Position numbers and translations under genes: made by a program
Notes under the pieces: generated by a model
The model's input: the letters and a program-made list of their open reading frames with translations, nothing else
Databases searched by the model: none
Told to the model about the DNA's origin: nothing
Shown here: positions 1 to 32,127 of the stretch, piece after piece
Layout: the number at the start of each line of letters is the position of its first letter
Position numbering within the stretch: position 1 is the first letter of the stretch
NCBI GenBank assembly: GCA_964547485.1
Contig: CAZJNU010000007.1
Span: 535-64,534, forward strand
Direction of reading: 5' to 3'
Source of the DNA: an uncultured Actinomycetes bacterium
GTDB taxonomy: Bacteria > Actinomycetota > Actinomycetes > S36-B12 > UBA10799
Length of the DNA stretch: 64,000 nucleotides

Positions 1-849
1 CAGGAACCGCCAGATGGCGTCCGCGGTCGCACCATCATTGCCCAGGAACGGCTGCCGACTCGCACTGAACCAGGCGAACAGGCCCACCGCGATGACCAGA
101 CCCAGCCACAGCCAGCGGAACCGGACCAGCGCAGCCCGATAGCCCAACGCTACCGGTCGACCGACCGGTAGCGAAGCCACGACAACGAAGATCAGCACGG
201 GTAGCAGAAGTCCCTTGGTTCCGGACAGGAAGGCTGCAGCAACCGCAACCAACATGAACAGCCAGTCGCGGGCGATACCGGTTTCCATCGCCCGGACGCA
301 GAAGTACAGCGCAACGCCCGCAGCCAACAGCAGCGGCGCCGCATAGATCGCGACCGACCACCAGGTGATCAATTCCACCGTGAAAAGGGACAGCCCAGCG
401 AAGGCAGCCAGGAACACCCCCAGCCAGCGCGGGCCGCTGAGCCGTTCGGAAATCGCCGCGCAGCTGATCTGGAAACCGGCCATGCAGGCGGCCGAAAAGA
501 GCACGAGGGCAAGGTAGGAGTCAGGAAACAGCCGCTGCAGCAGCCACTGGACGGCCGATCCGATGGGGTTCAGGTGTCCGTTGTGCCCGGCAAAGAGGTA
601 GTCGACACTCAACGGCTGGGTCGCGGCGTTGCGCAACAGGAAGTCGTCACCGACGAAGTACCCGCGTTGGCCGAACCACACCCGGAACAGGAACGTGGCC
701 GCGATCACCGCGCCGGCCAACAGCCAGAAACGACCGCGGCTCAGAGTGCCAGTCCGTAGAGCGGGCAACGAAGCGGCTGCCGACTCGACGTCTTCGGCTT
801 CGCCCAGCACCGCCTCGTCGGTCGTGTCAGCGGTCACGGCCGCGAGCAT
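1..849 (-). CDS. polytopic membrane protein, putative GT-C-type glycosyltransferase (N-terminal part only; 3' end lies beyond the window edge)
   Basis: Own minus-strand translation; absent from the ORF track because no stop lies in the window. ATG at 849-847 gives MLAAVTADTTDEAVLGEAEDVESAAASLPALRTGTLSRGRFWLLAGAVIAATFLFRVWFGQRGYFVGDDFLLRNAATQ... The frame stays open to position 1 through repeated hydrophobic helices. The GDD motif just after TM1 recalls the DDG loop of the Emb-like proteins. Alternative GTG starts at 837 and 810. Confidence 0.5.
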   Translation of the reverse strand, partial: MLAAVTADTTDEAVLGEAEDVESAAASLPALRTGTLSRGRFWLLAGAVIAATFLFRVWFGQRGYFVGDDFLLRNAATQPLSVDYLFAGHNGHLNPIGSAVQWLLQRLFPDSYLALVLFSAACMAGFQISCAAISERLSGPRWLGVFLAAFAGLSLFTVELITWWSVAIYAAPLLLAAGVALYFCVRAMETGIARDWLFMLVAVAAAFLSGTKGLLLPVLIFVVVASLPVGRPVALGYRAALVRFRWLWLGLVIAVGLFAWFSASRQPFLGNDGATADAIWRFL

Positions 850-1795
850 ACCCGTCCTGCTCGCTTGCGGACCGACGGGCGAGATGCCACCGAGCCTGCC
901 GCCGCAATCCATCCTCAGCCGACACCGAAGGTCGCCAGCCGAGCACCGCAGCGGCATGTTCAGCAATACCGGCAGTGACCCGCTGATCACCAGTTTGCGC
1001 AGGGGCCCAGTTGATCCGGGGTTCCGCCCCCAACTCGTCAGCGAGGACAGCCAGCGCGGTCAACAACTCGATCCGCTCGCCGCCCGCAATATTCATTACC
1101 TCACCTGGCAGGCCACGGTCCAACGCCGCCAGCGTCGCGGCGGCGACATCGTCGACGAAAGTATTGCTGCGCGACTGCCGACCGTCGCCGAACACTGTCA
1201 GGGTCTGGCCGTCCAGCATGGCCTCGCAGAAGAGGTGATAGGCCATGTCTGGACGCTGTCCGGGACCGTAGACCGAGAAGTAGCGCAGCACAACAGCATC
1301 CAGTTCGTATTCCCGCACATAGGCAGCCACGAGGTGTTCGGCAGCGGCCTTGGTCACGCCGTAGGGCGATACCGGCCGAATCGGCAGCGACTCATCCCCC
1401 ACTGCTTCCCGGCCGTAGACACTCGAAGTCGACACCTGCACCAACCGCGTGCCTGCGTCGGCGCAGGCGGCCGCCAGCCGCTGCACGACGTTGATGTTGC
1501 AGGAACTGTAGAGCGGGAAATCCGACCAGCTGACTGCCTGCCCCGGCATCGCAGCTTCATTGATGACCACATCGGCCCGCCCGATGAGCCCCACGATTTC
1601 GCACTCTCGAAGGTCGGCCTGCAGGCACTCGAGGCCGGTGGCCGCCAGTTCGTCGAACCGCTGGCGCTTAACCGCTGCTGGGTATGGGCCACCCAGTAGC
1701 GCGTCCACCGCGACGACGTCATGACCCTCGGCGGCCGCCCTCAGTGCGACGGTCGAGCCGATGAAGCCGGCGGCGCCGGTGACCACGATCCGCAT
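827..1795 (-). CDS. NAD-dependent epimerase/dehydratase (extended SDR, UDP-sugar 4-epimerase family)
   Basis: 322-aa ORF with Rossmann motif MRIVVTGAAGFIGS at the N-terminus and a catalytic YxxxK (SPYGVTKAAAE). ATG at 1795-1793. Confidence 0.9.
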   Translation of the reverse strand: MRIVVTGAAGFIGSTVALRAAAEGHDVVAVDALLGGPYPAAVKRQRFDELAATGLECLQADLRECEIVGLIGRADVVINEAAMPGQAVSWSDFPLYSSCNINVVQRLAAACADAGTRLVQVSTSSVYGREAVGDESLPIRPVSPYGVTKAAAEHLVAAYVREYELDAVVLRYFSVYGPGQRPDMAYHLFCEAMLDGQTLTVFGDGRQSRSNTFVDDVAAATLAALDRGLPGEVMNIAGGERIELLTALAVLADELGAEPRINWAPAQTGDQRVTAGIAEHAAAVLGWRPSVSAEDGLRRQARWHLARRSASEQDGYARGRDR

Positions 1796-1868
1796 GTGCG
1801 TACCTTAGGGGGTTGGTTCCGCGGGCCGGGCCGGCTGGCACGACGGCAGGGCGCCGGCTCCGCAGCGG

Positions 1869-1910
1869 TCAGGGTTTCCGGGCGATCAGGGTTTGCGGGC
1901 GATCAGGGTT
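1869..1910. repeat. 17-bp tandem duplication (2 copies plus an 8-nt partial) spanning the stop codon of the 1886-2935 gene
   Basis: tcagggtttccgggcga (1869-1885) and tcagggtttgcgggcga (1886-1902) differ at one base. They are followed by tcagggtt (1903-1910). The middle copy encodes the C-terminal IARKP plus stop on the minus strand. Confidence 0.8.
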
Positions 1911-2935
1911 ATCCCGGAGCCACACTCGTACAGTCGCTCGATCTCAAGGCCATCCTGCTCACACCAGGACCGGACCTCGTCGGGGGTGTGCCGATGTGCG
2001 TCGGTCGGGTGGTACCAGTCGAAATTGGTGATGACATTGGAGTCCCAGTCCATCGACTCGTTCCAGTAGGCCTTCATCATGTGGTAGTAGATGAACCGCT
2101 GGACATCGTAGGTTCCGGCCTTCATCTCCAACAGCGGAATGTCGACCGGCAGCGTGAACTCTGCCTTGAGTTCGGCTAGCGCTCTGCCTAACTCGGTGAT
2201 CTGGGTACTGACCGCCAGGCACTCCGCCGGCGACATAGAAGTCGTGGTGGCACGGATGAAGTCGTCGGTGAACTCTCGGATCGGGGCCTTCACCTTGTAG
2301 ACGTAGGTGGCGAGCCGGCCGCCCGGCTTCAGCACCGACACCAGCGATCGGAAGGCCTGGTGCGTGTCCGGGGTATGGTGCAGCGCTTGATCACAGGCGA
2401 CCAGGTCGAAGTGGTCAGCTGGAAAGGGGAGCCTCGTCATATCGGCCTGCACGAAGTCGAGGTTCGGGATCTGCCACAGATCTCGGTAGGCGTTCCGGAT
2501 GCCGTAGGAGAAGTCGAGCCCGATCACCTGCGCGGAACTGTTCTCCGCGTACAGCTGCGCGTCCCGGCCATGACCGGTGCCGCAGTCCAAGATCAGTTGG
2601 TCGTCCGCCAGGAATTGCGCCACCTCACCGACGTCGGCGAAGCCGTACCGCTCCAGATACCAGTTCCGGTAGTGGTCAAGGGTGGCCTGCCGATAGTCCG
2701 GCGCCAATTTCCACTTGGTTGAGAAGCTGTCCTGAGTGGCGCGCTGGTCGGGGCCCATCTGCTCCCCAGACACCAGGTCGGGCACTCCGTCGATGATCGG
2801 GAAAACCTCCCGCGACGCCGTGGACAGGCTGCCCAGCAACACCTCGCCACCGAACTCGTCCTCCACCTCGAGCACCATCGGCTCCCCGGATTCAGGTGAC
2901 CTCAGGTGCTCAACCAGACTGTGTTTCAACGACAT
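1886..2935 (-). CDS. class I SAM-dependent methyltransferase
   Basis: 349-aa ORF with motif I LILDCGTGHGRDA, acidic post-I residue (VIGLDFS) and LKPGGRLATYV. A short N-terminal extension resembles a Trm112-like module but lacks the cysteines. The start overlaps the upstream asnB-like stop by 26 nt. Confidence 0.8.
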   Translation of the reverse strand: MSLKHSLVEHLRSPESGEPMVLEVEDEFGGEVLLGSLSTASREVFPIIDGVPDLVSGEQMGPDQRATQDSFSTKWKLAPDYRQATLDHYRNWYLERYGFADVGEVAQFLADDQLILDCGTGHGRDAQLYAENSSAQVIGLDFSYGIRNAYRDLWQIPNLDFVQADMTRLPFPADHFDLVACDQALHHTPDTHQAFRSLVSVLKPGGRLATYVYKVKAPIREFTDDFIRATTTSMSPAECLAVSTQITELGRALAELKAEFTLPVDIPLLEMKAGTYDVQRFIYYHMMKAYWNESMDWDSNVITNFDWYHPTDAHRHTPDEVRSWCEQDGLEIERLYECGSGITLIARKP

Positions 2936-4583
2936 CTCCTGTCTGTGTTCCGGTAGGTAGCGTGAGTTGACGCAGGCATTCGCCGATCAGCAGATCGTTC
3001 CAGGCCCGCCGGTCCAGATCCCGGGCATTGAACACCCACTCATTCACCGGCGCCGGCAGACCATGTTTGACCTGCCGCCGGAGCACGCCGAGGTCGGCTT
3101 CCCCGAGCGACCTCTTCAGCGCCCTGCGCACGATCACCTTGCCGCGACCATTAGCGAACCGCAGCTCTGGTGCCAGCCTGGCCGAGAACTCCACCAGCCG
3201 ATGGTCGAGGAACGGATTGCGAACTTCCAGGCTGTTGGCCATGCTCATCCGGTCGGCCATGGTGAGCAACGGCTGCATGAAGATCTGGGTCTCAACTGCC
3301 GCCAGGTTGTGGGCCAGCGGCACCCCCGCGTCCCACAACGGCGAAATCACGGCCCGCAGGATCTCCTCATCCTCGCGACCATGCCGCGACGCCATCCGGA
3401 CGAATCGATCCAAACCGGTACCGAAATACCGATTGGCGAGCGAACTGTACTGGCTGCTGATGCTCGAGGCGATCCATTCATCTTCGCCGAGCAGGATCTC
3501 GTTTCGGTAGTAGCCGTTGAACAGTTCATCTGCGCCCTCGCCCGACAACACCACTTCGAATCCCGCTGCGCGGGCGGCTCGGCTGAGGCAAAACAGTGGG
3601 TAGATGGAGAAGCTTCCGACCGGAAACTCGATATGCCTGGCGAGTCGTGGCAGGACAGCTGCGAAGTCCTCCCGATCGGGTCTTACGACATGGTTCCGGA
3701 AACCCAACTCATCGGCGAGTTCAGCGGTCAGCGTCTCCTCGTCCAGGAAGCTGCGGAACTCTTCGAACTGCACGGTGAAACTGTCCGACAGCCGCATCAC
3801 CGACTGCACCAGGGAACTGTCAACGCCACCGGACAGGAAGACAGCCACCGGCACATCCGCGTGCCGTCGAAGTTCACACGACTGCGCGAAGATCTGCAGG
3901 AACTCATCGACCGCGTCGTCGAGGTCGACGAGGTCACCGACGTAGGCCGGAAAGTTCCACCATCGTGCCGATTCGGTCTCGCGACCGACGGAATCCCAGT
4001 AGAGCCACTCACCCGGTCGCAGGCTGTGCACTCCACGGAAGGGCGTGTGGGAGTCGAAGTAGAACTCCAACGCGTCACACACCTCCACCGGGGAGTAGGT
4101 CAGGTCGGCGAAGACCTTGAGTTCCGAACCGAACGCGAAACCATCGCCGTCGGTCCGGTAGAACAGCGGTTTCTTGCCGAGTCGGTCCCGTGCCAGGAAG
4201 AACCCCCGGCCGTCCCAGATGGCCAGCGCAAACATGCCGTTGAACCGCGGCAGGCAGTCCTTCCCCCACTCGCGGTACGCGGCCAACACCACCTCGGTGT
4301 CGGTGGAAGTGCTGAACACATGACCCAGTTCGACCAGCTCCCGCCGCAGCTGACGCCAGTTGTAGATCTCGCCGTTGAAGGCGATGGCGGCCGATTCGGC
4401 CTCCCACGGCACCGGCATCGGAGCGGTATCCACAATGCTCAGCCGCGTCATCCCCAGCAGTAGGTTTTCTCCCGCAGGGGTCTCAACCATTCTGCTGCCG
4501 ACCTGATCAGGCCCCCGGTGGGTGAGTGCTGCCAGCGGATTCGAGGTGAGCAGGTGCGGGCTACCCCCGACTATCCCGCACAT
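2910..4583 (-). CDS. asparagine synthase B-type glutamine amidotransferase (polysaccharide amidotransferase candidate)
   Basis: The track ORF starts at 4646. Class II amidotransferases need Cys as the first residue after Met removal, and the internal ATG at 4583-4581 gives MCGIVGG. The GATase-2 segment NGEIYN and the PP-loop FLSGGVDSS of the synthetase domain are present. Confidence 0.85.
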   Translation of the reverse strand: MCGIVGGSPHLLTSNPLAALTHRGPDQVGSRMVETPAGENLLLGMTRLSIVDTAPMPVPWEAESAAIAFNGEIYNWRQLRRELVELGHVFSTSTDTEVVLAAYREWGKDCLPRFNGMFALAIWDGRGFFLARDRLGKKPLFYRTDGDGFAFGSELKVFADLTYSPVEVCDALEFYFDSHTPFRGVHSLRPGEWLYWDSVGRETESARWWNFPAYVGDLVDLDDAVDEFLQIFAQSCELRRHADVPVAVFLSGGVDSSLVQSVMRLSDSFTVQFEEFRSFLDEETLTAELADELGFRNHVVRPDREDFAAVLPRLARHIEFPVGSFSIYPLFCLSRAARAAGFEVVLSGEGADELFNGYYRNEILLGEDEWIASSISSQYSSLANRYFGTGLDRFVRMASRHGREDEEILRAVISPLWDAGVPLAHNLAAVETQIFMQPLLTMADRMSMANSLEVRNPFLDHRLVEFSARLAPELRFANGRGKVIVRRALKRSLGEADLGVLRRQVKHGLPAPVNEWVFNARDLDRRAWNDLLIGECLRQLTLPTGTQTGDVVETQSG

Positions 4584-4657: not shown

Positions 4658-6835
4658 GTGGAGGGACATCGGGTCGTGGCAGCGAAAGTGGACGTGTCGG
4701 TGGTGGTCCCCTGCCTGAACGAGGAGGCCAACCTGCCGCCGCTGGCGTCGCGGCTGTTCGCTGCGCTGGCTCGGGCGGGTGTCAGTTGCGAGTTGGTGCC
4801 GGTGGACGACGGCAGCACCGACACCACCTGGGACGTGATCCAGACCCTCAGTCGCGCCCATCCGGACGCGATCACCGGCGTCCGGCATGACACCAACCTT
4901 GGGATCCCGGCCGCGTGGCGCAGCGGGATCGCGGCGGCCCGCGGCACTTATGTCTGCCTGATCGATGCCGATCTGCAGAACCCGCCGGAGCAGGTGGTGA
5001 CGCTCTACCGTCGGTTGCTGGAGTCCCGAGCCGACATCTGCCAGGGGGTCCGCTCGCAGATCGAACGAGAGAAGGACGGTCGACTCGCCTTCTCGAAGGG
5101 CCTCAACACCGTCCTGAACGTCGCTTTCGGGGATCGGGCCGCGGACTCAAAGTCGGGCTTTGTGCTCGGACCACGGCGGGTGATGGCGGACGTTGTCGAC
5201 TACCGGGGGGACTACCAGGTCTTCCAGGCCTTCATCCGCGTCGCGGCCCGGGCCAAGGGTTACACGATGGTGGAGGTCGAAACGCTGTTCCTGCCGCGTA
5301 ACGCCGGGGAGTCCTTCCTGGCCGGGTCGCGCGCGTGGAAGGTGTCGGCTGCGACCCTGACCGACTTCCCGACCGCCCTGCGGGAATTCGGCCGGGGACG
5401 CCGCGAGCCGATCGACGGTACGCTGGCCCCCCGATCCCGGCCGGTGCCGCGCGCCGGAACGCCCTACCGAGGTTGGCGACGGGCGCTGTTCGAGGCGTAC
5501 TTCGCCAGTGCACCGATCCACCATCGGCTGGCCCGGCGCCGGGTTCGCTCGCTCTACCTGGAACTCCGCGAGACGCAGTGGCTTCCGCGGCAGGAGTTGG
5601 CGGACCTGCAGTTGCGCAAGTTGCAGCGCCTCGTCCAACACGCGGCGGTCCACGTGCCCTACTACCGTGAGGCCCTCGCCGGAATCGGCCCGGACCCGAT
5701 CGCCGGCCTCGAGGATCTGCGTCGACTTCCGCAGTTGACCAAAGATGATATTCGCGAGCGCCTCTACTTCGACCTGTTCGCCGACACCCACCGAACTCGG
5801 GACATGGTCAAGATGACCACCAGCGGTGCCACCGGTGAGCCCCTCGTGACCTATGTCGACAGGTACCAACTGGAGGTCCGGCTCGCGGTTGCCCTGCGCG
5901 CCGCAGAGTGGTCCGGTTGGCGGTTTGGGGATCGACAACTGCGCATCAGTGATGACTCCGTCGGAATGACGAATTGGCAGCGAATGCGCGCGGGACTGGA
6001 CAATCTGCTGCTCCGACGAGACGAGTTCACCACGGCCGAAGTGGACGACGAGGGGTTGGCCACCATCCTGGACAGCCTCGAGCAGGGCCCACCGTCCCTG
6101 ATCGACGGAAGCGGTGGCACGTTGGATCAGATAGCGACCAGGGCGGCGGCCCATCCCGACCGATACCGCGCCCGCGGCATCATCTCGCGGGCTGCCGACA
6201 TCTCCGCTGAAACCCGGGAACTGGCGGGAAAGGCGCTGCAAGCGCCCGTCCATGACTCCTACGGCACCCGAGAGATCGGCGATATCGCCTTCGGATGTGA
6301 AGCCATGGACGCCGGTGAAGTGCACCATGTGATGGACGAGTCCGTGATCGTGGAGATCCTCGTCGACGGCCGCCCGGCCGAACCTGGCGAAACCGGCGAA
6401 ATAGTGGTGACCGATTTGAACAACTTCTCGGTGCCACTGATCCGTTACCGGGTCGGAGATCTGGCGACCGCGGTGGACGAGTCGCGACCGTGCAGCTGCG
6501 GGCGTGGTCTGAGCCGGATCGGCCGGATCGAGGGGCGCACCCAAGCGAGCGTCCAACTCGCCGACGGAAGCTGGTTGCCGGCGTCGTTCTTCGCACACTT
6601 CTTCCAGGACTACGACTTCCTGGTGCGCCAGTTCCAGGTGTCCCAGGACCAACCTGGACAGTTGCTGCTGCAGATCGTCAAGGGTCCGCAGTGGAGTTTG
6701 GTGGCCGAGGCCGAGGTGCTGACCGAACTTGGCGGGATCGTCTCGGGGACGCCGATAGCGGTGCTGCACGTCGACGCGATCCCGCTCGAGCGGCCCGGTG
6801 ACGACCACAACCTGCGCCCTGGAACGCAACCGTGA
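4658..6835 (+). CDS. fusion protein: N-terminal GT2 (Dpm1-like polyprenyl-phosphate glycosyltransferase) + C-terminal PaaK/CapK/F390-synthetase-like adenylate-forming domain
   Basis: 725 aa with a GTG start. The GT2 part has VSVVVPCLNEEANL, VPVDDGSTD and IDADLQNPPE (DxD). The C-terminal part has LRKLQRLVQHAAVHVPYYRE, MTTSGATGEPL and VVTDLNNFSVPLIRYRVGD, as in phenylacetate-CoA ligase-like enzymes. Confidence 0.8.
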   Translation: MEGHRVVAAKVDVSVVVPCLNEEANLPPLASRLFAALARAGVSCELVPVDDGSTDTTWDVIQTLSRAHPDAITGVRHDTNLGIPAAWRSGIAAARGTYVCLIDADLQNPPEQVVTLYRRLLESRADICQGVRSQIEREKDGRLAFSKGLNTVLNVAFGDRAADSKSGFVLGPRRVMADVVDYRGDYQVFQAFIRVAARAKGYTMVEVETLFLPRNAGESFLAGSRAWKVSAATLTDFPTALREFGRGRREPIDGTLAPRSRPVPRAGTPYRGWRRALFEAYFASAPIHHRLARRRVRSLYLELRETQWLPRQELADLQLRKLQRLVQHAAVHVPYYREALAGIGPDPIAGLEDLRRLPQLTKDDIRERLYFDLFADTHRTRDMVKMTTSGATGEPLVTYVDRYQLEVRLAVALRAAEWSGWRFGDRQLRISDDSVGMTNWQRMRAGLDNLLLRRDEFTTAEVDDEGLATILDSLEQGPPSLIDGSGGTLDQIATRAAAHPDRYRARGIISRAADISAETRELAGKALQAPVHDSYGTREIGDIAFGCEAMDAGEVHHVMDESVIVEILVDGRPAEPGETGEIVVTDLNNFSVPLIRYRVGDLATAVDESRPCSCGRGLSRIGRIEGRTQASVQLADGSWLPASFFAHFFQDYDFLVRQFQVSQDQPGQLLLQIVKGPQWSLVAEAEVLTELGGIVSGTPIAVLHVDAIPLERPGDDHNLRPGTQP

Positions 6836-7632
6836 CCGACGCCAAGTTCTCCCGTTACCACTCCTGGCAGCAACGACTGCGCGGCCGGTTGACCAGTGGC
6901 CCGAGGCTTGCCCCCGACTCCCCGGCGGTGGCGATTCGGGAGGCGGTACTGGCCGATCCCTACCTCGCCAGCGCCTACAGCGAGATGTACGGCGGCCTCC
7001 GCGGGATCATTCCGCCGGCAATCTCGGGTCCAATCGTGGAACTCGGGGCCGGGGCGGATATGGGCCGAGCCTGGATTCCTACGATGTTGACCACCGACGT
7101 GTTGGCCAACGAATCCCTCGACGCTGTGCTGAGCGCGGCCGCCATGCCCTTCCGCGACGCCGCAATTGGAGCATTCGTCGTCAACGACGCCCTGCACCAC
7201 TTCCCCGATGTGGACGGATTCCTGGACGAGGCGGTTCGCTGTCTGGAAGTGGGTGGCGCCATCGTTGCCTGTGAGCCCTACTGGGGCCCGCTCTCGGCGG
7301 CCATCTACCGCGCCTTCCACCCAGAGCCGTTCAACCGGAGAGCCCCGTCGTGGTCGTCCGGCTCAGCAGATCCCTGGGACTCCAACCAGGCGCTGCTGTG
7401 GATCATGTTGCGACGAGACCGCCGTCGACTCACCGCCCGCTGGCCAATGCTGCGGATCGAGGAATTCGGGTGCACGCTCGGCCCGAGCTACCTGCTGTCA
7501 GGCGGTGTATTCGGCAGGACGCCGATACCGGCCGACTGGCTGCTGTCGACCTGGCGCTGGGAGCAGCGGCAGGGCCGGCGGTTCGACCCACTCCGGTTCA
7601 AGTACCTGGTCAGGTTCACTAGGGTCGGGTAG
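6832..7632 (+). CDS. SAM-dependent methyltransferase (Methyltransf_11-like)
   Basis: 266 aa. The GTG start forms a GTGA overlap with the upstream stop. Motif I IVELGAGADMG, then VVNDALHHFPD and LEVGGAIVACEP. Confidence 0.7.
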   Translation: MTDAKFSRYHSWQQRLRGRLTSGPRLAPDSPAVAIREAVLADPYLASAYSEMYGGLRGIIPPAISGPIVELGAGADMGRAWIPTMLTTDVLANESLDAVLSAAAMPFRDAAIGAFVVNDALHHFPDVDGFLDEAVRCLEVGGAIVACEPYWGPLSAAIYRAFHPEPFNRRAPSWSSGSADPWDSNQALLWIMLRRDRRRLTARWPMLRIEEFGCTLGPSYLLSGGVFGRTPIPADWLLSTWRWEQRQGRRFDPLRFKYLVRFTRVG

Positions 7633-7649
7633 AACAATCGCGACTGTCT

Positions 7650-11035: not shown

Positions 11036-11088
11036 TTGGTGCCAGCGTCCTCGCGAACCATACTCACGACTGGCCTTAGTCTGTGGTC

Positions 11089-17975: not shown

Positions 17976-17996
17976 CTAGGAAGGTTACCGGCTAGC

Positions 17997-25200: not shown

Positions 25201-26394
25201 GAGGGCCGCCATCAACCCGAGTGTCAGCGGCAGCCGCAGCACCGCATCGAATTTGTGGACGTTGCGCAGCGGTGCAAGCACGCCGTCCAACAGGCTCCGA
25301 ATTTCTTCGCTGCCGATCCCGGCGGGGATACCGACATGCCCGAGTGAGACCAGACCGAACCCGATGATCGCCGCACCCACCAGGAACGACCGCTGGGGCA
25401 GCCCCCGGATAGCCAACCCCGCCGCGCCGACTGCCGCCACCAATCCGGTCGCCAAAACCCCCCACCAGGAGGTGACCAACTCCCAGCCGGCAGGCAGCAA
25501 CGGACCGGTGTTGTCGACCAGGTAGGGCAGCCAGGCGTCCGCCCCGCGCATGACGTTGATACCGGAGGTCACCGAGGTGGTGACATTGGCCGACTCGATC
25601 CAGTCCAGGAACGGCGGTGAGTACTGTCCGAGGAGCAGCAGCGGCAGTAGCCACCACAGCGACGCCAACCCAATGCTCACCACCCACCACCCGCTGAGCG
25701 ACCAGAGCCGACGGCTCCGCTGCCGAGTCAGCAGCCACCACACCCCCAGCGGCAGCACGGCCATGGTGGCCACCGCGTTGACCCCGCCGATACATAGAAA
25801 CGCCACTCCGCTCAGCGCCGCCCACTTTCGGGGGCTGCCACCGAGGCTGCCTTTGACGAGCGGAATCAACACCCAGGGTGCCAGCGCCAACGGCCACGAT
25901 TCGATCGAGACCGCGCCCATGGTCGACACCACCCGCGGAGCCAATGCGAACGCCAGCGCCCCCACCACCCGGGTTCCCCGGGTGCCGATACCAAGCAGCG
26001 ACGCCAGTTTCACCATCCCCAGGAAAGCGACACACAGCAACAACGCCCACCAGAGCCGCTGCACCACCCAGGTCGGCAGGCCGATCGTCTGGCCGAGCCA
26101 GTAGAACGGCCCCATCGGCCAGAGGTAGCCGTATCCCTGATTCTGCAGCTGCCCCGAGAAACCCAGCGCGTCCCACAGGTGCAGCGCCCGCGACATCAAC
26201 CCGCCCGGGTTGATGTTCAGGTCAAGTTTGGTATCCGCCGCGATTCGACCTGGATCCTGAATGAATGCGAGCGCTGTCAGTCCTGCGCACACCAACACCA
26301 GCCGACCCCGCCACATCGGCACGATCGGCGCCGGCAGTTGCTGCTCCGGGTCCGGCGCCCCGACGGCGACAGACTCGCCTACCGTCGCGGTCAT
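22174..26394 (-). CDS. AftD-like alpha-(1->3)-arabinofuranosyltransferase family protein (DUF3367, GT-C)
   Basis: 1406 aa. The N-terminal signature is AADTKLDLNINPGGLMSRALHLWD...GQLQNQGYGYLWPMGPF. A multi-TM core is followed by a ~800-aa external region with discoidin-like segments and a C-terminal TM bundle. Size and layout match mycobacterial AftD (Rv0236c). Confidence 0.8.
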   Translation of the reverse strand: MTATVGESVAVGAPDPEQQLPAPIVPMWRGRLVLVCAGLTALAFIQDPGRIAADTKLDLNINPGGLMSRALHLWDALGFSGQLQNQGYGYLWPMGPFYWLGQTIGLPTWVVQRLWWALLLCVAFLGMVKLASLLGIGTRGTRVVGALAFALAPRVVSTMGAVSIESWPLALAPWVLIPLVKGSLGGSPRKWAALSGVAFLCIGGVNAVATMAVLPLGVWWLLTRQRSRRLWSLSGWWVVSIGLASLWWLLPLLLLGQYSPPFLDWIESANVTTSVTSGINVMRGADAWLPYLVDNTGPLLPAGWELVTSWWGVLATGLVAAVGAAGLAIRGLPQRSFLVGAAIIGFGLVSLGHVGIPAGIGSEEIRSLLDGVLAPLRNVHKFDAVLRLPLTLGLMAALAAAFSWLGQRRLRGVPVRTVLVAVVVAVIAASALPLVQGLGTRGRSYIDVPQYWREAADYLVDQPPGRALVVPEASFGVFQWGRTNDEPFQAFGSVPWAVRDSVPLSSAGNIRVLDSIKAQLESGRGSAGLSELLWRSGFTQVVVRNDLDRYAAKSPYRSVIHSTIANSPGLLRTAYFGPVLNSFVSPTLIADEGLDGTYPAVEVFEVVPPAGQVDRTGQGGAAEQGGISPRVTLRDASRPTIIAGGAEAVLTAAAAGQALGTVVVDGDPGVAALPAGTVLGTDSLRRQEVNFGAVRNNLSNTLTAGDDYSMDRPVHDYLSTPYAGNTVAEYGPGVELSASSSGSQANAARNRSAANQPWAAVDGDGQTRWLTGDYAAGVGQWWQLDLGKSVDLGTELPAVLTAGSPGAARPTAIDVTTDAGTVRTDFAATDDPVDLAVPSGPTTTLRLTMRAAESGRNDTGFGIAELTLPDGPVARSVGPIGGEDDVDGWLFQATPGGRGGCVMNGERISCSADLGRPGEELTGIDRTINLTAATTFRVRATALARDTGAVDRLLTVANAPAKVTASSTLVGDPGARAATAMDGSGATAWIANPLDKAPTLEVALRRPATISGLKIDNRIDLNASNPLGLTVDAGGRRMSGYTDEQGVFRFEPVTTSKLRITFDSRYPKTEATTGSVDHRVLPVGISELKILGAPGVVASLPAAATFTVECGFGPSLLIDGKIRKDTGASGVVGRVLAGQPVTLTPCDGDTVTIPAGRHRIQLKSTAEFAADTLSLLPTTGPGPGVAETTAPTVTEWQPANRTVDVAASPTTRTLELAENYNAGWVATVDGRELEPVRVDGWRQAWVVPAGTAGAVQLTFAPDAGYRWGLALGLLAALLLVGLALLRARPNALPPAQRSHRRGRWLLTGVAVLCVAATTGIAGLALAGVVAAVLLRTRLQQFAWLVAGVTVLLATALQLAFPWPGSLSQPSWVSWVQSLAVVAALAAWIVPSFDATRRSKAAPPPPS

Positions 26395-27167
26395 CCATCA
26401 TCCTTCCGCAGCACCAGCACCAGATTCCACATCGCCAGTTCCCGCAGTCCCGGCACTCGCGCGATACCGAAGGCCCAGCCGGGCAGGTACCGCGGGAAGG
26501 CAGTGATCAACTGCGCACCACAGGCATTCCGGGCCCAGCGGAGCCCGGCGCCAGCAGTGATGGGGAACAGACTTTCTCCGTAGACGTTCTTTGGTGCGTG
26601 CCCGTTCCGCTGCCTGTAGCGGTCCGCCGCCAGTCGACCGCCGAGGTAGTGCCAAGGGGCGGTCTCGTGACCGCCCCACGGCCCGTACCAGAGCGTGTAG
26701 GAGATGAAGACCAGTCCGCCGGGCCTGGTCACTCGCACCATCTCATCCGACATCCGCCACGGCCGGTCGACGTGCTCCAACACATTGCTCGAATAGCAGA
26801 TGTCCACCGCGCCGGTGCCGTACGGGAGGTCCATCCCGCTACCCATCACTGTGCCCGGATAGGGAGTCCGCCCGTGTAACCGCAATTCGCCGGCGTCAGC
26901 ATCCAACGGTCGATAGGTAGCACCCACGCGGGTGAACTCGTCCGCAAAGTACCCGGGACCGCCGCCGACATCCAGCACCGTCGCGCCGGCCACCTCGCAG
27001 AAATGGGCGACCTGGGCGACCGAGTCCCGCGCCAGCGTGGAGTAGAACCTGTCGGGGTCGGTCTGCTCGACCCGAAAGGCCTCGAACAGTCGCCGGGCCC
27101 TGCCGAAGGTGGCATCCGCTCGCAGACCCGCCAGGCCACTATCCATCTCCGCCTGGACTCCTCTCAC
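26391..27167 (-). CDS. class I SAM-dependent methyltransferase (Rv0224c-like)
   Basis: 258 aa with motif I VLDVGGGPGYFADEF, then CYSSNVLEHV and RPGGLVFISY. Its stop forms an ATGA overlap with the AftD-like start. Alternative ATG at 27146. Confidence 0.8.
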   Translation of the reverse strand: MRGVQAEMDSGLAGLRADATFGRARRLFEAFRVEQTDPDRFYSTLARDSVAQVAHFCEVAGATVLDVGGGPGYFADEFTRVGATYRPLDADAGELRLHGRTPYPGTVMGSGMDLPYGTGAVDICYSSNVLEHVDRPWRMSDEMVRVTRPGGLVFISYTLWYGPWGGHETAPWHYLGGRLAADRYRQRNGHAPKNVYGESLFPITAGAGLRWARNACGAQLITAFPRYLPGWAFGIARVPGLRELAMWNLVLVLRKDDG

Positions 27168-27288: not shown

Positions 27289-28455
27289 GTGCGCATCCTC
27301 TTTCTGACGTGGCGTGATACCCGCAACCCCGAGGGTGGCGGCTCTGAGGTCTATGTCGAGAACGTCGCATCGGCGCTCGCCGCGGCGGGCCACGAAGTCA
27401 CCATCTTCTGCGCCAGCTACCCCGATGCCGCCCCGCTGGAAATCATCGACGGCGTTCGCTTCGTCCGCCGGGGGACCAAACTCGGCGTCCATCTGGAGGC
27501 GGTGCGCTATCTGCGGTCACCCACCTTCGGCACTCCGGACGTCATCGTCGATGTCCAGAACGGGATTCCGTTCTTCGCCCGCCCGGTACGCCGGGACATT
27601 CCCACTGTGGTGCTGGTACACCACGTCCACCGGGAACAGTGGCCGGTTGTCTACGGACCGCTACGATCCCGGATCGGATGGGCACTGGAATCGCGGGTCA
27701 GCCCCCGGCTCTATCGGGAATGCCTCTACGTTGCCGTGAGTCGCCGAACCAAGGCGGAGCTGGAGGGCATCGGCGTCGCGGCCGACCGCGTTGAGGTCAT
27801 CTACAACGGAACCTCACCCGCCCCGGAAGTTGAGGATACGAAAGCAGAGCAGCCTACAGTGCTGGTGCTCGGCCGACTCGTCCCACACAAGCAAGTGGAA
27901 CATGTGCTCCGTGCGGCGCGGCACTTACGAGTACGCATACCGGACCTGCGGATTCGGATCATCGGTGACGGCTGGTGGTCGCAGAGCCTGCGGCAGGCCG
28001 CCGAGGATCTGGGCGTGGCGGACAGTGTGGAGTTCCTGGGATTCGTCGACGAACGCACCAAACATCAGGAGCTGGCCAAGTCCTGGGTGCTGGCGTTACC
28101 CAGCCTTAAGGAGGGGTGGGGGATCGTCGTGATGGAGGCCGCTCAACAGGGCGTGCCGACTATTGCCTACCGCGATGCGGGCGGAGTCACCGAATCCATC
28201 GTTGACACCGAAACAGGTTTGCTCGCCCGCGATGAAACCGAGTTCAGTACCCATTTGGAGGCACTGCTCGCCGACGAGACGTTACGCAAGCAGATGGGCG
28301 AAGGCGCCCGCGAACATGCCACCCGATACACCTGGCAAGAGACCTCGGCGGCATTCGCAGACACGCTCGCCCGAGCGGCCAACCGCGGCCGGCTGTCCGT
28401 GTCGCCGGTGCAACCGGTGCACCTCGGCCACCAACTGGAACGGGAACTTCACTAG
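27289..28455 (+). CDS. GT4 glycosyltransferase (Rv0225-like)
   Basis: GTG at 27289 is preceded by GGGAAGGA and gives VRILFLTWRDTRNPEGGGSEVYV. The C-terminal GT-B motif is PSLKEGWGIVVMEAAQQGVPTIA (E-x7-E region). The track extension to 27109 would overlap the divergent gene and is rejected. Confidence 0.85.
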   Translation: MRILFLTWRDTRNPEGGGSEVYVENVASALAAAGHEVTIFCASYPDAAPLEIIDGVRFVRRGTKLGVHLEAVRYLRSPTFGTPDVIVDVQNGIPFFARPVRRDIPTVVLVHHVHREQWPVVYGPLRSRIGWALESRVSPRLYRECLYVAVSRRTKAELEGIGVAADRVEVIYNGTSPAPEVEDTKAEQPTVLVLGRLVPHKQVEHVLRAARHLRVRIPDLRIRIIGDGWWSQSLRQAAEDLGVADSVEFLGFVDERTKHQELAKSWVLALPSLKEGWGIVVMEAAQQGVPTIAYRDAGGVTESIVDTETGLLARDETEFSTHLEALLADETLRKQMGEGAREHATRYTWQETSAAFADTLARAANRGRLSVSPVQPVHLGHQLERELH

Positions 28456-28835: not shown

Positions 28836-30677
28836 TCATTGGCGCCGTCTGTCGGCCCGCCGTCGCCGGATTCCGACCGCACCGGCGATCCCGGCGGCCG
28901 CGGCCGCCACCCCTGCTGCAAGCACAACTGTCGCCGCGATCAGGTTCGCGGCCAGGATCGGCAGGAACCCCTTCGAGACAGGAGGATCAGCGGGTGACTG
29001 ACCGGTCGACCAGACCTCCAATTCATCCTCACTCCAAGTCAGGGTCATCCCACCCAAGTCGACCGGACGGCCCAGTGTCGGTTGATCCAGCTGCACCACC
29101 ACCCGGTTGATGCCGAGCGCCGGTAGCACCCGCGCCAGCGGCGTGCCGTCATCGATCGCGGCCCCGACCTGAGCGGCCCGGGGATCGTCCCCGGCAACGC
29201 GCAGATACTTTCCGGAGGAACGCTGATAGACGACCAGACTGGTATCCGCGACCACGGTGCTGGTGAGATAGCGGGGCAACGGGTCCACCACCGTGCGGTC
29301 GGCATTCCAGCCGTAAACGCGAAAGGTGCTCCAGGGCAGCGCCAACACATCCCCTGGTTGCTGCGCGATGTGCTCGCGCAGTCGAGCCCACGAGGATGGA
29401 TAGGACACCGGCGACAGCCGACCACCGACTCCCCACCCGAGATCGGGTAGCAGCAGCAGCGGCCCGACGGCGACAGCCAGCACCACTGCCCGCCGACCTC
29501 CTCGGGTCGGGATCCGAGCGCGAAGTTCCTGTACCCCCAGCGGGGCCGCAATCGCCAGCCACAATGCGAGCAGGGCGAGCGGCTTCTGACTGTCCCGCAA
29601 CAATCCCGCACCGGGTACTGAGCCCACAATGGACCGACCCACACTGGACCCAACGCCCACGCTGGTCAGCGCAGCCAGCAGCGCCAGCCCCGTCAGGTAC
29701 CAACCCAATGGCCGCCCCAACAACTTCATCAGTGGTTTCGTACCGAAGATGGCCAGCGCGAGCAACCCGAGTCCGAGCAGCAGACCCAGCCCGAGTCGAC
29801 GACTGAGCGGAACCGCATCGGAATTCCAGGTTCCGCCGAGCGACAGCGCAGTCAGGATGGCACCCCAGGGACCGTCTTCCCGCAGCGCGAACGAGTCGAC
29901 ACCGGCGGCATTCGCAGCGCCGGACGACCTGTGTAGTAGCGCCGGTACGACCCACGGCAGGTTGATCGCGACGACACCGGCGAGGCCACCCAGCCGGACC
30001 CGCCAGGAACTCCTCGCGCCTGGCACCAGCAACCCAACGGACAGCGTCAATGCCAGAAGTCCCCCCGATGGCACCCAACTGGCCAATGCGGTCCACCCCC
30101 ACAGCGCTGGCCAACCCCACAGGTACTTCCGGCCGGTCAAGGTTGCCGGACGCGCGACCCCCGTCCTCACTCGGATCACGGCCAGCAGGATCCACGGCGC
30201 CGATGCATAGGCGAGCAGCAACGACCAGTTGCCCATCACGAGTCGTTCAGCCAGGTAGGCGTTCCACACGTAGACACTCGCTGCGACCAACTGCACTCCG
30301 ACGCCGAATCGCCTGAGCACCCTTGCTGCGCCCAGACCGGCCAGCCCCACGACGGCAACCAGCACCGCCTTCTGGAGCAATTGGCCGGGCACTGGACCGG
30401 CGAAGACGGAAACGATCAGGTCCTGTGGAACCGCCCGTGGCAGCCCACCCTCCAGCCCGAGCATCCACGGCAACAGCGTCTGCTGAGGCACGAAGACCAT
30501 GTCAAGGTTCAGCACATAGCCGGGCGCCAGTAGCGGGGCGAGAATCAAGGTCGCCATCACCACCACCCAGCCGGGCACAATCCACCCGCGCCAACCGCGA
30601 GGCCCGCCGGGAGGATCAGCCTGAAATTCGCCGGCTCGGTCGCTGGCGGGTTCCGCGGCTCGGTCACTGGCGTCCAT
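28836..30677 (-). CDS. polytopic membrane protein (Rv0226c-like by position; possible GT-C)
   Basis: 613 aa with ~12 hydrophobic helices, then a ~170-aa soluble segment and a terminal TM. The function is inferred only from topology and neighbourhood. Confidence 0.6.
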   Translation of the reverse strand: MDASDRAAEPASDRAGEFQADPPGGPRGWRGWIVPGWVVVMATLILAPLLAPGYVLNLDMVFVPQQTLLPWMLGLEGGLPRAVPQDLIVSVFAGPVPGQLLQKAVLVAVVGLAGLGAARVLRRFGVGVQLVAASVYVWNAYLAERLVMGNWSLLLAYASAPWILLAVIRVRTGVARPATLTGRKYLWGWPALWGWTALASWVPSGGLLALTLSVGLLVPGARSSWRVRLGGLAGVVAINLPWVVPALLHRSSGAANAAGVDSFALREDGPWGAILTALSLGGTWNSDAVPLSRRLGLGLLLGLGLLALAIFGTKPLMKLLGRPLGWYLTGLALLAALTSVGVGSSVGRSIVGSVPGAGLLRDSQKPLALLALWLAIAAPLGVQELRARIPTRGGRRAVVLAVAVGPLLLLPDLGWGVGGRLSPVSYPSSWARLREHIAQQPGDVLALPWSTFRVYGWNADRTVVDPLPRYLTSTVVADTSLVVYQRSSGKYLRVAGDDPRAAQVGAAIDDGTPLARVLPALGINRVVVQLDQPTLGRPVDLGGMTLTWSEDELEVWSTGQSPADPPVSKGFLPILAANLIAATVVLAAGVAAAAAGIAGAVGIRRRRADRRRQ

Positions 30678-30772
30678 CAGAACCCCATCTAATCGCGCCC
30701 ACCGGGCCGGCGGCGGTCAATCCGGCCAGCTTCGCGGACAATCCAGTCCGGGTCGCGGATTCCGCCTTTCAC

Positions 30773-30791
30773 GTCCGGCAGGCTGCCGGAC
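30773..30791. promoter_or_regulatory. perfect 19-nt palindrome upstream of the flippase gene
   Basis: GTCCGGCAG g CTGCCGGAC has 9-nt arms and ends 34 nt before the ATG at 30826. It could be an operator or a 5'-UTR hairpin. Confidence 0.25.
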
Positions 30792-30825
30792 ACCTACGCT
30801 GGAGCCAAAGGAGGATCACAACCGG

Positions 30826-32127
30826 ATGACAGCAGAGACGCCCGACCCGACGGCCGCGACGACGGCGGCCGCGCCGCCCGATCAGAGCGCAGCTGGCCCC
30901 TCCATCCTTCGTGGCGCGGGTATCGTGGCGATCTCCCTCGGCCTGGTCCAGGTGTTCGGCTATCTACTGAACGTGGCCGGCGCCCGACTGTTGACCCAGT
31001 CGGAATTCGGGGCCTTGGCGTCCCTACTGAACCTGGTGATCATCGGCAACGTTGTCGCCTTCGGTCTGCAGGCCGTGGCGGCCAGGTTGGTGGTCACCTC
31101 GGCGGCTGCCGATCGAGGTCCGGTCGGCGCGCGGATCCTGCGATTTGCCGTGTCGGCAGGAGCCTTGCTGGCGGTTGTTGGGCTCCTGAGTTCCCCGATC
31201 ATCAGTTCGTTGCTGCATCAATCGGGCGCCTTCGTGGTGGCCTGCGTCGCGTTGATGCTGGCTCCGCTGACGGTCGCCGGCGGCCAATACGGGCTCGCTC
31301 AGGGACGCGAGCAGCACCTACGGCTCGGCACGTTGCTGATCGTGACCGGTGTCGGGCGCCTGCTCGGCGGGCTGGTGGGACTGATCGCGTTCGGGACCGT
31401 GACGGGCACCATCGCACTGATGTGCCTGGGCACGTGGCTGGGCGCCACCATCGGGATGCTGCTGGTTCGACGCATCGCCACTGGCCCGCCGGCAATGATC
31501 AAAGACCTGCGGTGGCAGGTGATCCACGCCTCGCACGCGATGTTCGCATTGTTCGTCGCGACAAGTGTCGATCTGCTGCTCGCCCGGTTCTACCTCACCG
31601 GTCCGGAGTCCGGTGCCTACGCCGTTGGTGCCATTGTCACCAAGATCGCCTTCTGGCTGCCGGCCTTCATTGCCGTGGTCGCATTCCCGCGGATGGCCGA
31701 CGACCGACGGCAACAGACGACCGCCATTGCGGCCGGGGCAGTCGCAGCCATCGGTGCCGTGCTCGTGCTGGCCCTGGCCCTGCTGCCCGGCCTGGTCATC
31801 GCCGTGGTGGCCGGCGATGAGTACACCTCCCTCGCACCCGATCTGTGGATCTTCGGCCTGATCGGCGCGGCTTTCTCACTCGCCCAGTTCCTGCTCTACT
31901 CCCGCCTCGCCGTCGATGACCGCCGGGCAGTATTCGCACTGTGGGCTGCGGTGGTGTTCATCTTCGCGGGTGTCAGCGTGTGGCACGCGAGCGTGGCCCA
32001 AGTCGCCACCGTCGTCGCGGTCGTCGCGTTGGCACTCTCCGCAGTCGGGGTGGCGAGCCTCATCATCGATCGCCGCCACGGAGTCCCCCACCCCGGCGAA
32101 GCCCTCGATTCGCTCGAACGCGCGTAG
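30826..32127 (+). CDS. polysaccharide/oligosaccharide flippase (Wzx/MOP superfamily)
   Basis: 433 aa with ~12-14 TM helices. RBS AAAGGAGGA lies upstream. The N-terminus (ILRGAGIVAISLGLVQVFGYLLNVAGARLL) is typical of polysaccharide biosynthesis proteins. Confidence 0.7.
   Translation: MTAETPDPTAATTAAAPPDQSAAGPSILRGAGIVAISLGLVQVFGYLLNVAGARLLTQSEFGALASLLNLVIIGNVVAFGLQAVAARLVVTSAAADRGPVGARILRFAVSAGALLAVVGLLSSPIISSLLHQSGAFVVACVALMLAPLTVAGGQYGLAQGREQHLRLGTLLIVTGVGRLLGGLVGLIAFGTVTGTIALMCLGTWLGATIGMLLVRRIATGPPAMIKDLRWQVIHASHAMFALFVATSVDLLLARFYLTGPESGAYAVGAIVTKIAFWLPAFIAVVAFPRMADDRRQQTTAIAAGAVAAIGAVLVLALALLPGLVIAVVAGDEYTSLAPDLWIFGLIGAAFSLAQFLLYSRLAVDDRRAVFALWAAVVFIFAGVSVWHASVAQVATVVAVVALALSAVGVASLIIDRRHGVPHPGEALDSLERA

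Follow-up and report, generated by a model that had tools for sequence, protein, structure and literature searches.

The first 32 kb of a 64,000-nucleotide stretch of DNA from an uncultured Actinomycetes bacterium (contig CAZJNU010000007.1 of assembly GCA_964547485.1; hereafter the window) encode a pair of membrane proteins related to mycobacterial EmbA, EmbB and EmbC, together with further glycosyltransferases of the GT-C and GT2 types. We read this span as a mosaic of three adjoining cell-envelope gene sets and not as one pathway, with the Emb-like pair probably fed by lipid-linked donors that GT2 enzymes make, and put the probability of this reading at roughly 55%. The original prediction, drawn from the sequence and a list of its open reading frames (ORFs), had proposed a single 32-kb locus and pathway assembling an arabinan-like, or otherwise lipid-donor-dependent, wall polymer with amide, methyl and acyl decorations. 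A single locus is not supported, because the ribosomal protein gene rpsA splits the span and its right 12 kb are conserved as a unit in Micromonospora.

The leftmost set is a variable island that spans 1 to 12.2 kb and reaches about 10 kb beyond the left edge of the window; on balance, we believe that it both supplies and uses lipid-linked donors. Between 12.2 and 18 kb lie two anciently duplicated Emb-family GT-C paralogs, downstream of rpsA. The third set (19.6-32.1 kb) is recognizable by homology and synteny as a pan-actinobacterial cluster of AftD, MmpA, GT4, acyltransferase-3 (AT3) and PgfA genes. The six polytopic GT-C-like proteins of the original prediction are all present. They comprise AftD, an MmpA-like protein, the two paralogs with the Emb fold, a PMT_2-like fragment and one protein of a GT-C family that is new. 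Six among 19 genes would seem far more than expected by chance.

Genes were called from ORFs and codon-position G+C (the window has 66% G+C), and the proteins were scanned against Pfam and NCBIfam. Sequences were also searched against the PDB, and AlphaFold2 (AF2) models were searched by Foldseek. Related Emb loci were collected by scanning species-representative genomes with an alignment of the Emb-like subfamily and comparing the hits with all window proteins; comparison loci carry labels such as L004, L005, L006, L007, L012, L013, L029 and L094. The left flank was read from a contig (L091) of the metagenome-assembled genome (MAG) GCA_964269095.1, part of which is identical to the window. 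NCBI labels the proteins 'Actinomycetota bacterium', and Candidatus Nanopelagicales is the label of the closest relatives that have a name.

The Emb-like pair and the GT2-CapK cassette

Hidden Markov model (HMM), paralogy and fold evidence agree for the two proteins of about 950 residues and therefore place both within the Emb fold and superfamily, as had been proposed from their DDG(W) loops. The 968-residue protein matches PF04602 (Arabinose_trans) with 76.3 bits against a cut-off of 25 and EmbA, EmbB and EmbC in the PDB at E ~1e-11, and its segment SLSDDGWVLTTAR...SNYF aligns with the DDGY...NYY segment of EmbC. For the 954-residue protein, direct searches of Pfam and of PDB sequences gave no match. 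Over 921 residues it shares 30% identity with the 968-residue protein (E 3e-56), and PF04602 is carried by all 22 of its listed homologs that are not near-identical. Both have the DDGW loop (EFDDGWVLTT in the 954-residue and SLSDDGWVLTT in the 968-residue protein), which aligns with DDGY of EmbC and whose aspartates D256 and D257 are invariant in 14 relatives.

The AF2 model of the 954-residue protein, built on 14 relatives (pLDDT 75, pTM 0.77), matches EmbC, EmbA and EmbB over their full length (Foldseek E 3e-34 to 2e-26, TM-score 0.62-0.70), with EmbC 7bve as the best match (E 3e-34, TM-score 0.70) and ArnT as the next family (E 2.5e-4). The HMM for Arabino_trans_C (PF14896) finds neither protein; the C-terminal domain of the model is rich in beta structure, and Foldseek weakly matches it to the extracellular domain of Corynebacterium diphtheriae Emb (3byw, E 5e-3). 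The Emb-like proteins form a deep and short subfamily of 850-1000 residues that shares 15-18% identity with the Embs of solved structure. In a neighbor-joining tree the 954-type and 968-type are two separate old orthologous groups, which stand side by side also in L004 and L006 at only 45% identity to the window. By analogy with EmbA/EmbB, the pair may act as a heterodimer.

Only 21 nt separate the end of rpsA from the start of the 954-residue gene (window 17975-17999). Because this gap has no terminator-like site and the rpsA/Emb-like adjacency recurs in L004 (45% identical), the Emb-like pair is probably co-transcribed with this housekeeping gene. A variant architecture was seen in L007 (12600-17111), from a related MAG, which encodes a 1503-residue protein with an Arabino_trans_N plus Arabinose_trans module from residue ~640 onward, preceded by an N-terminal extension of about 600 residues.

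The candidate donor synthase of the left island is a fusion of an N-terminal GT2 domain and a C-terminal PaaK/CapK adenylate-forming domain. Residues 11-225 match dolichyl-phosphate mannose synthase (DPMS), ArnC and GtrB in the PDB, all of them polyprenyl-phosphate glycosyltransferases and the closest relatives of this domain, suggesting the same activity for the fusion, while residues 304-629 match PaaK. The family is large, with at least 418 homologs at about 50-64% identity, and labelled members come from Ca. Nanopelagicales, Acidimicrobiia, Protaetiibacter, Nocardioides and Gemmatimonas. Its conservation is unusual, the mean column identity being 69% in a cross-phylum alignment. In related Emb loci the conserved set consists of an Emb-like gene, the lipoprotein, the fusion (60-63% identical), a second short-chain dehydrogenase/reductase (SDR) that is the partner of the fusion and is called SDR' here, and an SDR of the type found at 827-1795 (53-67%). 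This neighbourhood is kept in L004, L005, L007 and L012. The cultured species Nocardioides piscis has SDR, SDR' and the fusion in succession, followed by a 901-residue Arabinose_trans gene, the start of which overlaps the stop of the fusion.

The neighbourhood of the fusion was sampled in 80 metagenomic and 5 genomic loci (n = 85). In 66 of these the gene immediately upstream of the fusion is SDR'. An Emb-like protein adjoins the fusion in 15 loci, all from the more closely related Actinomycetota. Of the 57 loci with enough flank, 45 encode within 5 kb of the fusion a protein that has at least 450 residues and at least seven transmembrane (TM) segments, and large polytopic proteins make up 17% of the genes up to 5 kb from the fusion versus 5% of those farther away. 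Five of nine large polytopic neighbours scanned from other loci match Pfam, two of them YfhO (with DUF6541 beside one of these matches), two PMT/PMT_2 and one DUF6077. Across phyla the cassette thus has YfhO, PMT or other large polytopic proteins beside it where related Actinomycetota have Emb-like genes. Given this enrichment and variety, it resembles a module for donor synthesis that is combined with the GT-C in use in the given lineage. The coupling of fusion and Emb-like genes suggests donors of the GT2-made polyprenyl-phosphate type and not arabinose supplied via UbiA/DprE.

The window copy of the fusion deviates from its family. The P-loop TSGATGEP of the CapK domain is present, and the near-invariant C-terminal TGKRSPVVS, which is kept in all 14 other aligned homologs, is replaced by RPGDDHNLRPGTQP and a stop. 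The protein thus ends in ...IPLERPGDDHNLRPGTQP (window 6780-6835) versus ...IPLLRTGKRSPVVS in the homologs. Lost with this motif is the equivalent of the catalytic lysine (A10) of ANL enzymes, so that of the two PaaK/ANL hallmarks the window copy has the P-loop and lacks the C-terminal lysine motif. The break coincides exactly with the start of the co-directional genes at 6832-11035. A frameshift was rejected as its cause, as the motif is not encoded in any other frame and five contigs have yielded the identical protein. Literature searches found no paper that characterizes a GT2-CapK/PaaK fusion; searches on CapK/F390-synthetase-like enzymes in polysaccharide synthesis, on Emb-like enzymes outside Mycobacteriales and on uronic wall polymers of Nocardioides returned nothing relevant.

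The AftD/MmpA cluster

AftD, predicted from its DUF3367 N-terminus and size, is confirmed by a 747-bit match to PF11847 over residues 39-713 of 1406. The protein has the GT-C_AftD domain, a carbohydrate-binding module (CBM) region and a C-terminal TM bundle at the expected ~1400 residues, with seven predicted TM segments in the N-terminal part and four at the C-terminus. AftD homologs are known in 12 actinobacterial orders (bioRxiv 10.1101/2019.12.22.885152). The neighbouring MmpA-like and PgfA-like proteins pass their NCBIfam models (NF053599, 416.6 bits against a cut-off of 210; NF053601, 192.9 bits against 160). MmpA is partly homologous to the N-terminal GT-C region of AftD (PMC8698533), and for this reason alone the predicted GT-C-like build of 28836-30677 is justified.

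The cluster has its equivalent in Micromonospora tulbaghiae, where AftD, a 627-residue membrane protein, an MmpA-like protein, GT4, AT3 and a PorA protein form one block. Identities to Micromonospora are 39% for AftD, 36% for the syntenic AT3 and 47% for the syntenic GT4. The 258-residue methyltransferase of the cluster has a 47%-identical homolog beside the Emb-like gene of L005. The 433-residue protein at the right end had been called a Wzx-like flippase. With about 11 predicted TM segments, it is at most a candidate flippase, as searches of Pfam and of PDB sequences returned no match up to E<=5. A 35%-identical homolog stands directly beside AftD in Micromonospora (L094:1942-3231), suggesting a conserved, unnamed AftD partner that is possibly a transporter. 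Among the 120 best-matching homologs of the MmpA-like protein are some from Micromonospora, Blastococcus, Jiangellaceae and MAGs of Ca. Nanopelagicales.

By these matches the cluster is homologous to the corynebacterial tmaT/mmpA locus. In Corynebacterineae, TmaT, MtrP and MmpA of this locus are needed for synthesis and export of acetyl-trehalose-monocorynomycolate (acetyl-TMCM; PMC8698533), and NCgl2760/PgfA acts in maturation of lipomannan and lipoarabinomannan (LM/LAM) or in trafficking of trehalose monomycolate (PMC8698533; PMC9678360). Since the Corynebacterineae homologs act in mycolate acetylation and transport or in LM/LAM maturation, the methyltransferase and acyltransferase of the right half are not obviously polymer decorations. 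In the present host the cluster very probably does general lipoglycan or wall-glycan work, not mycolate work; the closest homologs with a name stem from lineages in which mycolic acids are not known.

Donor chemistry and competing explanations

The sugar on the proposed donor might be a uronate. The best PDB matches of the SDR at the left end are the UDP-glucuronate 4-epimerase of Bacillus cereus (6zl6, 8e-59) and MoeE5 (8e-53), and the alignment to 6zl6 places T126/S127, Y149, K153 and R185 (within the motif YGPGQRPDMA) at conserved positions. These residues reportedly serve catalysis and, in the case of the arginine, carboxylate binding. The SDR is thus a probable UDP-glucuronate 4-epimerase, and homologs of 53-67% identity occur in related loci. 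As the local SDR has the residues of such an epimerase, the donor may be derived from galacturonate and differ from decaprenyl-phospho-arabinose; a uronate would also offer the CapK domain and the AsnB-type amidotransferase a carboxyl group to act on. The amidotransferase starts with MCGIVGG at 4583, with the N-terminal cysteine nucleophile intact. That it replaces the adenylation step of the truncated CapK domain is speculation. For the cassette in general a uronate donor is weakened by the rarity of a linked UDP-glucose dehydrogenase and by an SDR' that has no RPDM motif, and the idea may hold only for the actinobacterial subset with the second SDR.

The pathway that we envisage would begin with a nucleotide sugar, the best candidate being UDP-galacturonate, to which the SDR at 827-1795 would convert UDP-glucuronate. 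With its GT2 domain, the fusion would move the sugar onto polyprenyl phosphate, and tailoring in the cytoplasm would combine ATP-dependent activation of the carboxyl group (by CapK, or here by AsnB to give an amide) with methylation. The lipid-linked donor would then be flipped across the membrane, and the Emb-like GT-Cs would pass the sugar to a wall polymer or lipoglycan outside, possibly assisted by the exported lipoprotein at 11083-12210 as an accessory esterase. A fusion of a methyltransferase and a second GT2 domain (MT-GT2) and the 627-residue GT-C encoded after it might form a second pair that adds further side groups together with the PMT_2-like GT-Cs. Extended to other genomes, this becomes a tentative proposal, possible rather than probable: Emb-family GT-Cs outside mycolate-bearing actinobacteria would use a polyprenyl-phosphate sugar made by SDR and GT2-CapK in place of decaprenyl-phospho-arabinose, the sugar perhaps being a carboxyl-modified galacturonate. 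The cassette would then be a fourth flavour of lipid-donor system, one with ATP-dependent adenylation that serves Emb-like, YfhO, PMT or unclassified GT-Cs depending on the phylum, and the window would hold a remodelled version in which AsnB replaces the truncated CapK.

Several points weigh against donor supply of the Emb-like pair by the cassette. Since the window fusion has lost the C-terminal lysine motif and SDR' is absent from all 64 kb, the cassette may be crippled here. In the window, 5 kb and a change of strand separate the fusion from the Emb-like genes, and gene adjacency is a correlation alone. No more than 2 of the 85 loci have a UDP-glucose dehydrogenase gene linked to the cassette, and SDR', the near-universal partner, is without the uronate motif RPDM. 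No flippase is recognized by homology, the only candidate being the 433-residue protein, which is by synteny a member of the AftD cluster. Lastly, a UbiA/DprE1/DprE2 route encoded in the rest of the genome may feed both AftD and the Emb-like pair with decaprenyl-phospho-arabinose.

Such a route is central to the pathway originally predicted, in which one dedicated locus builds an arabinan-like polymer from decaprenyl-phospho-arabinose by means of the Emb-like proteins and AftD and the tailoring set decorates the same polymer. The Emb fold and DDGW loop, a bona fide AftD with CBMs and the location of all genes inside 32 kb speak for it, as does conservation of the segment aligned to the ethambutol-resistance region of Emb (DDGW...SNYF). 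We nevertheless consider it unlikely: besides the interruption by rpsA and the independent conservation of the AftD half in Micromonospora, no UbiA, DprE1 or DprE2 domain was found among the ORFs scanned across the 64 kb, as the original prediction had itself noted for the window, and Emb-like genes elsewhere are coupled to a GT2 synthase and not to UbiA/DprE genes. With an SDR of uronate type in addition, an arabinan-like product is unproven. Joint decoration of one polymer is made less likely by the related loci, which retain the Emb-like pair and lack counterparts of AsnB and of the methyltransferases in the first 12 kb. In agreement with the original prediction, the combination of amidotransferase, adenylase and methyltransferases has, to our knowledge, no counterpart in the mycobacterial arabinogalactan/LAM pathway.

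A little less probable still is an accidental proximity of left island and Emb-like pair, where the GT2s would make polyprenyl-phospho-mannose or -hexose for PMT_2-type GT-Cs acting in protein glycosylation or in the extension of a lipomannan-like lipoglycan, and O-methyl sugars would be the product of the methyltransferases. This would account for four paralogous PMT_2-like copies (1-849 and the left flank), one of them split, for the coupling of the MT-GT2 gene to a GT-C of its own (9152-11035), for an island content that differs among relatives and for a nucleotidyltransferase-phosphohexomutase fusion at 39470-41995. It is opposed by the fact that the GT2-CapK fusion, the SDR of UDP-glucuronate-epimerase type and the lipoprotein accompany Emb-like genes across lineages only 45% identical, and the residues of the SDR are uronate-specific, not as expected for a mannose pathway. 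We regard it as very improbable that the host is a mycolate producer in which MmpA, the methyltransferase and AT3 acetylate and export trehalose monomycolate and the PgfA homolog traffics it. Both NCBIfam equivalog models are passed and the gene set matches the tmaT locus (PMC8698533; PMC9678360), but Mycobacterium, Corynebacterium, Nocardia and Rhodococcus are missing from the best 120 MmpA-like homologs, the cluster is syntenic in Micromonospora, a genus not known for mycolic acids, and pks13, fadD32 and mmpL3 are not in the window. A mosaic of gene sets with GT2-made donors for the Emb-like pair accordingly remains our preferred reading.

Other genes and relation to known systems

The features of the span are listed below. 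At the level of domains the original prediction was largely accurate, and the context it described, Emb/AftD-type GT-Cs with Dpm1-like GT2 enzymes, is borne out by a span dominated by GT-C transferases and GT2 polyprenyl-phosphate-sugar synthases. Its two GT2 domains were recovered at the N-terminus of 4658-6835 and the C-terminus of 7650-9155, its single GT4 as a Glycos_transf_1 match at 27289-28455, and its four S-adenosylmethionine (SAM)-methyltransferase domains at 1886-2935, 6832-7632, the N-terminus of 7650-9155 and 26391-27167. The AsnB-type enzyme scores 365 bits with TIGR01536 (cut-off 267), and HMM or PDB matches confirm the SDR and Acyl_transf_3 domains. The adenylating domain is present as well, with its C-terminal TGKRSPVVS motif gone. 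For the exported alpha/beta-hydrolase lipoprotein, the lipobox LSGC and a GFSGG motif are there, and neither HMM nor PDB searches support a hydrolase. Two genes had been overlooked, rpsA (17997-19469) and the PgfA/LmcA-like gene (19648-20853).

Table 1. Genes of the first 32 kb of the window, with the match or feature on which each assignment is based.
Position	Strand	Feature	Basis
1..849	-	N-terminal 283 codons of a 632-aa PMT_2-like GT-C	PF13231, 29.9 bits on the fragment
827..1795	-	SDR, probable UDP-glucuronate 4-epimerase	Best PDB matches 6zl6, MoeE5
1886..2935	-	SAM-methyltransferase, 347-349 aa, Trm112-like N-terminus (MT349)	Methyltransf_11/25, E 5e-21; weak Trm112 match
2910..4583	-	AsnB-type glutamine-dependent amidotransferase, 557 aa	TIGR01536; Asn_synthase and GATase_7 domains
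4658..6835 (called start 4676)	+	Fusion of GT2 (N-terminus) and PaaK/CapK adenylate-forming domain (C-terminus)	PF00535; PDB matches
6832..7632	+	Small SAM-methyltransferase, 266 aa (MT266)	Methyltransf_11, 1.6e-7; start overlaps fusion stop
7650..9155	+	SAM-methyltransferase (N-terminus) and Dpm1/AglJ-like GT2 (C-terminus)	PF13489 and PF00535
9152..11035	+	GT-C-fold protein, 627 aa, rare unclassified family	AF2/Foldseek; start overlaps MT-GT2 stop
11083..12210	+	Putative exported lipoprotein, possible esterase	Lipobox LILSGC; GFSGGG (GxSxG) motif
12214..15120	-	Emb-family GT-C, 968-type paralog, 968 aa	PF04602, 76 bits; start uncertain, 15024-15120
15111..17975	-	Emb-family GT-C, 954-type paralog, 954 aa	Paralogy to 968-aa protein; EmbC fold match
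17997..19469	-	rpsA (ribosomal protein S1)	Four S1 domains, E 2e-81
19648..20853	-	PgfA/LmcA-like DUF3068 (PorA-family) envelope protein, 401 aa	NF053601; PF11271, 3e-52
21030..22280	+	Acyl_transf_3 membrane acyltransferase	PF01757, 2e-26; position TmaT holds beside PgfA
22174..26394	-	AftD-family GT-C with carbohydrate-binding modules, 1406 aa	PF11847, CBM_AftD, F5_F8_type_C
26391..27167	-	SAM-methyltransferase, 258 aa	Methyltransf_11, 8e-15; overlaps AftD start by 4 nt
27289..28455	+	GT4 glycosyltransferase	Glycos_transf_1, 6e-37
28836..30677	-	MmpA-family polytopic membrane protein, 613 aa	NF053599
30826..32127	+	433-aa protein, ~11 predicted TM, candidate flippase	Micromonospora homolog

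In the left island, an operon divergent from the fusion comprises AsnB, a methyltransferase, the epimerase-type SDR and the PMT_2-like GT-C. The full gene of the latter is present in L091 and encodes a protein with about 11 TM segments and a GDDF motif in the first loop. The island continues leftward (L091:10947-20706) with the rest of this gene and two tandem paralogs of 632 and 624 residues, which are 61% identical overall, with C-terminal stretches of about 140 residues that are almost identical by eye. A pair of 373 and 243 residues aligns to the N- and C-terminal parts of the 632-residue protein and therefore represents a split gene or pseudogene. The flank also encodes a 649-residue AT3+SGNH O-acyltransferase.

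Related Emb-like loci contain no counterpart of MT349, MT266, MT-GT2, the 627-residue protein or AsnB, and homologs of the lipoprotein, which itself has no significant HMM or PDB match, adjoin Emb-like genes in L004, L005, L006, L012, L013 and L029. The MT-GT2 protein scores 90 bits with TIGR04182 (AglJ), under the cut-off. The 627-residue protein, with 10 TM segments, has no Pfam match and nothing significant in PDB sequence or relaxed Pfam searches. Its family counts 62 representatives among 1.84 billion proteins; four of 31 members match PMT_2, and D61 is invariant within SDxxGW. The top Foldseek matches of its AF2 model (pLDDT 88, pTM 0.90) are all GT-C, namely PglB (2e-4), STT3, ArnT, Emb and Pmt4, at a low TM-score of ~0.35. 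By its model the protein is a GT-C whose family is as yet unclassified, and its gene is coupled to that of MT-GT2. A sequence link of this family to the Emb-like alignment was rejected (hhalign probability 2.5%).

Outside the span, an 841-residue fusion of a sugar-1-phosphate nucleotidyltransferase and a phosphogluco/phosphomannomutase (39470-41995, minus strand) overlaps the end of a CDP-alcohol phosphatidyltransferase gene (41991-42656, minus strand) and could supply activated hexose for membrane glycolipids. A block on the minus strand at 33347-39093 contains gcvP, MerR, a bifunctional-nuclease domain protein, MerR and an FHA/zinc-ribbon protein; the gene order around gcvB-garA in mycobacteria is the same. 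A WS/DGAT wax-ester/triacylglycerol synthase (56441-58075, minus strand) has a C-terminal tail of about 70 residues with weak matches to histone-H1-like and extensin-like low-complexity models. Rfam and tRNA scans found no structured RNAs or tRNAs in the window and no glycine riboswitch at threshold.

The Emb proteins, targets of ethambutol, pass for enzymes of Corynebacteriales that are specific to arabinan. If true, the coupling of a deep-branching Emb subfamily to a GT2-type donor synthase would widen the range of donors known for this family of drug targets as well as its evolutionary history, and an uncharacterized, widespread GT2-CapK cassette would be defined. MmpA, PgfA and AftD are named for roles in mycolate or arabinan synthesis, yet form a conserved unit in actinobacteria not known for mycolic acids. 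The distribution of this unit hence matters for automatic annotation and for the primary function of these genes. Both questions are directly testable because cultured carriers exist (Nocardioides piscis, Protaetiibacter intestinalis and Micromonospora).

Among known systems, the right-hand cluster most resembles the tmaT locus (TmaT, LmcA/PgfA, MmpA, MtrP; NCgl2759-2765 / Rv0224c-Rv0228), the equivalog HMMs of which its MmpA and PgfA pass. As in that locus with AftD added, AT3, methyltransferase, GT4 and AftD stand in one cluster; AT3, which has the position of TmaT beside PgfA, and the 258-residue methyltransferase would be the candidate counterparts of TmaT and MtrP. In contrast to the tmaT locus, the gene order is rearranged, the host is probably no mycolate producer and the cluster occurs equally in Micromonospora, and for the latter two reasons the published roles in acetyl-TMCM synthesis and export may not apply here.

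The left island shares with moenomycin biosynthesis a MoeE5-type SDR and an AsnB-type amidotransferase in the same operon. There, the AsnB-like MoeF5 makes a galacturonamide, which offers a chemical precedent for a uronamide. Unlike the moenomycin cluster, the window lacks a prenyl-phosphoglycerate synthase and all other moe genes, and its context is that of a wall glycan, not of secondary metabolism. A moenomycin-like cluster was rejected, given the missing prenyltransferase and other moe genes and surroundings rich in GT-Cs.

The Emb-like pair matches mycobacterial EmbA, EmbB and EmbC (GT53, PF04602; PDB 7bvc, 7bve, 7bvf) in its full-length fold. An N-terminal periplasmic beta-domain, a core of 13-15 TM segments and a C-terminal beta-rich domain are common to both, as are a DDG(Y/W) loop followed by an SNY(F/Y) segment and, as in embA-embB, the adjacency of paralogs. 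The pair differs in its length of about 950 versus about 1100 residues, in its 15-18% identity and in the absence of an Arabino_trans_C HMM match. Furthermore, it follows rpsA, unlike the aftA-embCAB/ubiA/dprE region of mycobacteria, and, again unlike mycobacterial Emb, its relatives in other Actinomycetota are coupled to a GT2-CapK synthase.

Three-component systems consist of a synthase, a flippase and a GT-C, with auxiliary SDR epimerases, and those compared here are GtrA/GtrB/GtrV, ArnC/ArnE-F/ArnT, PpgS/Rv3779 and PPPRS/MATE/GT136 (PMC11127046), the last being the nearest precedent in concept. They have in common with the left island a cytoplasmic polyprenyl-phosphate-sugar synthase, an extracytoplasmic GT-C and the auxiliary SDR epimerases; in the window, two GT2 domains are the putative synthases and a predicted GT-C is encoded beside a synthase. 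Rhizobium RgtE with RgtA-D is an example of this type for galacturonate. Different from these systems are the fusion of the synthase to a PaaK/CapK domain, the Emb-family GT-C partner and the lack of a recognized GtrA-, SMR- or MATE-type flippase. We know of no synthase-PaaK/CapK fusion described in the compared systems. The lipid-linked sugar might be modified transiently or permanently, similar to the formyl group in the Arn pathway and the acetyl group in the PpgS pathway.

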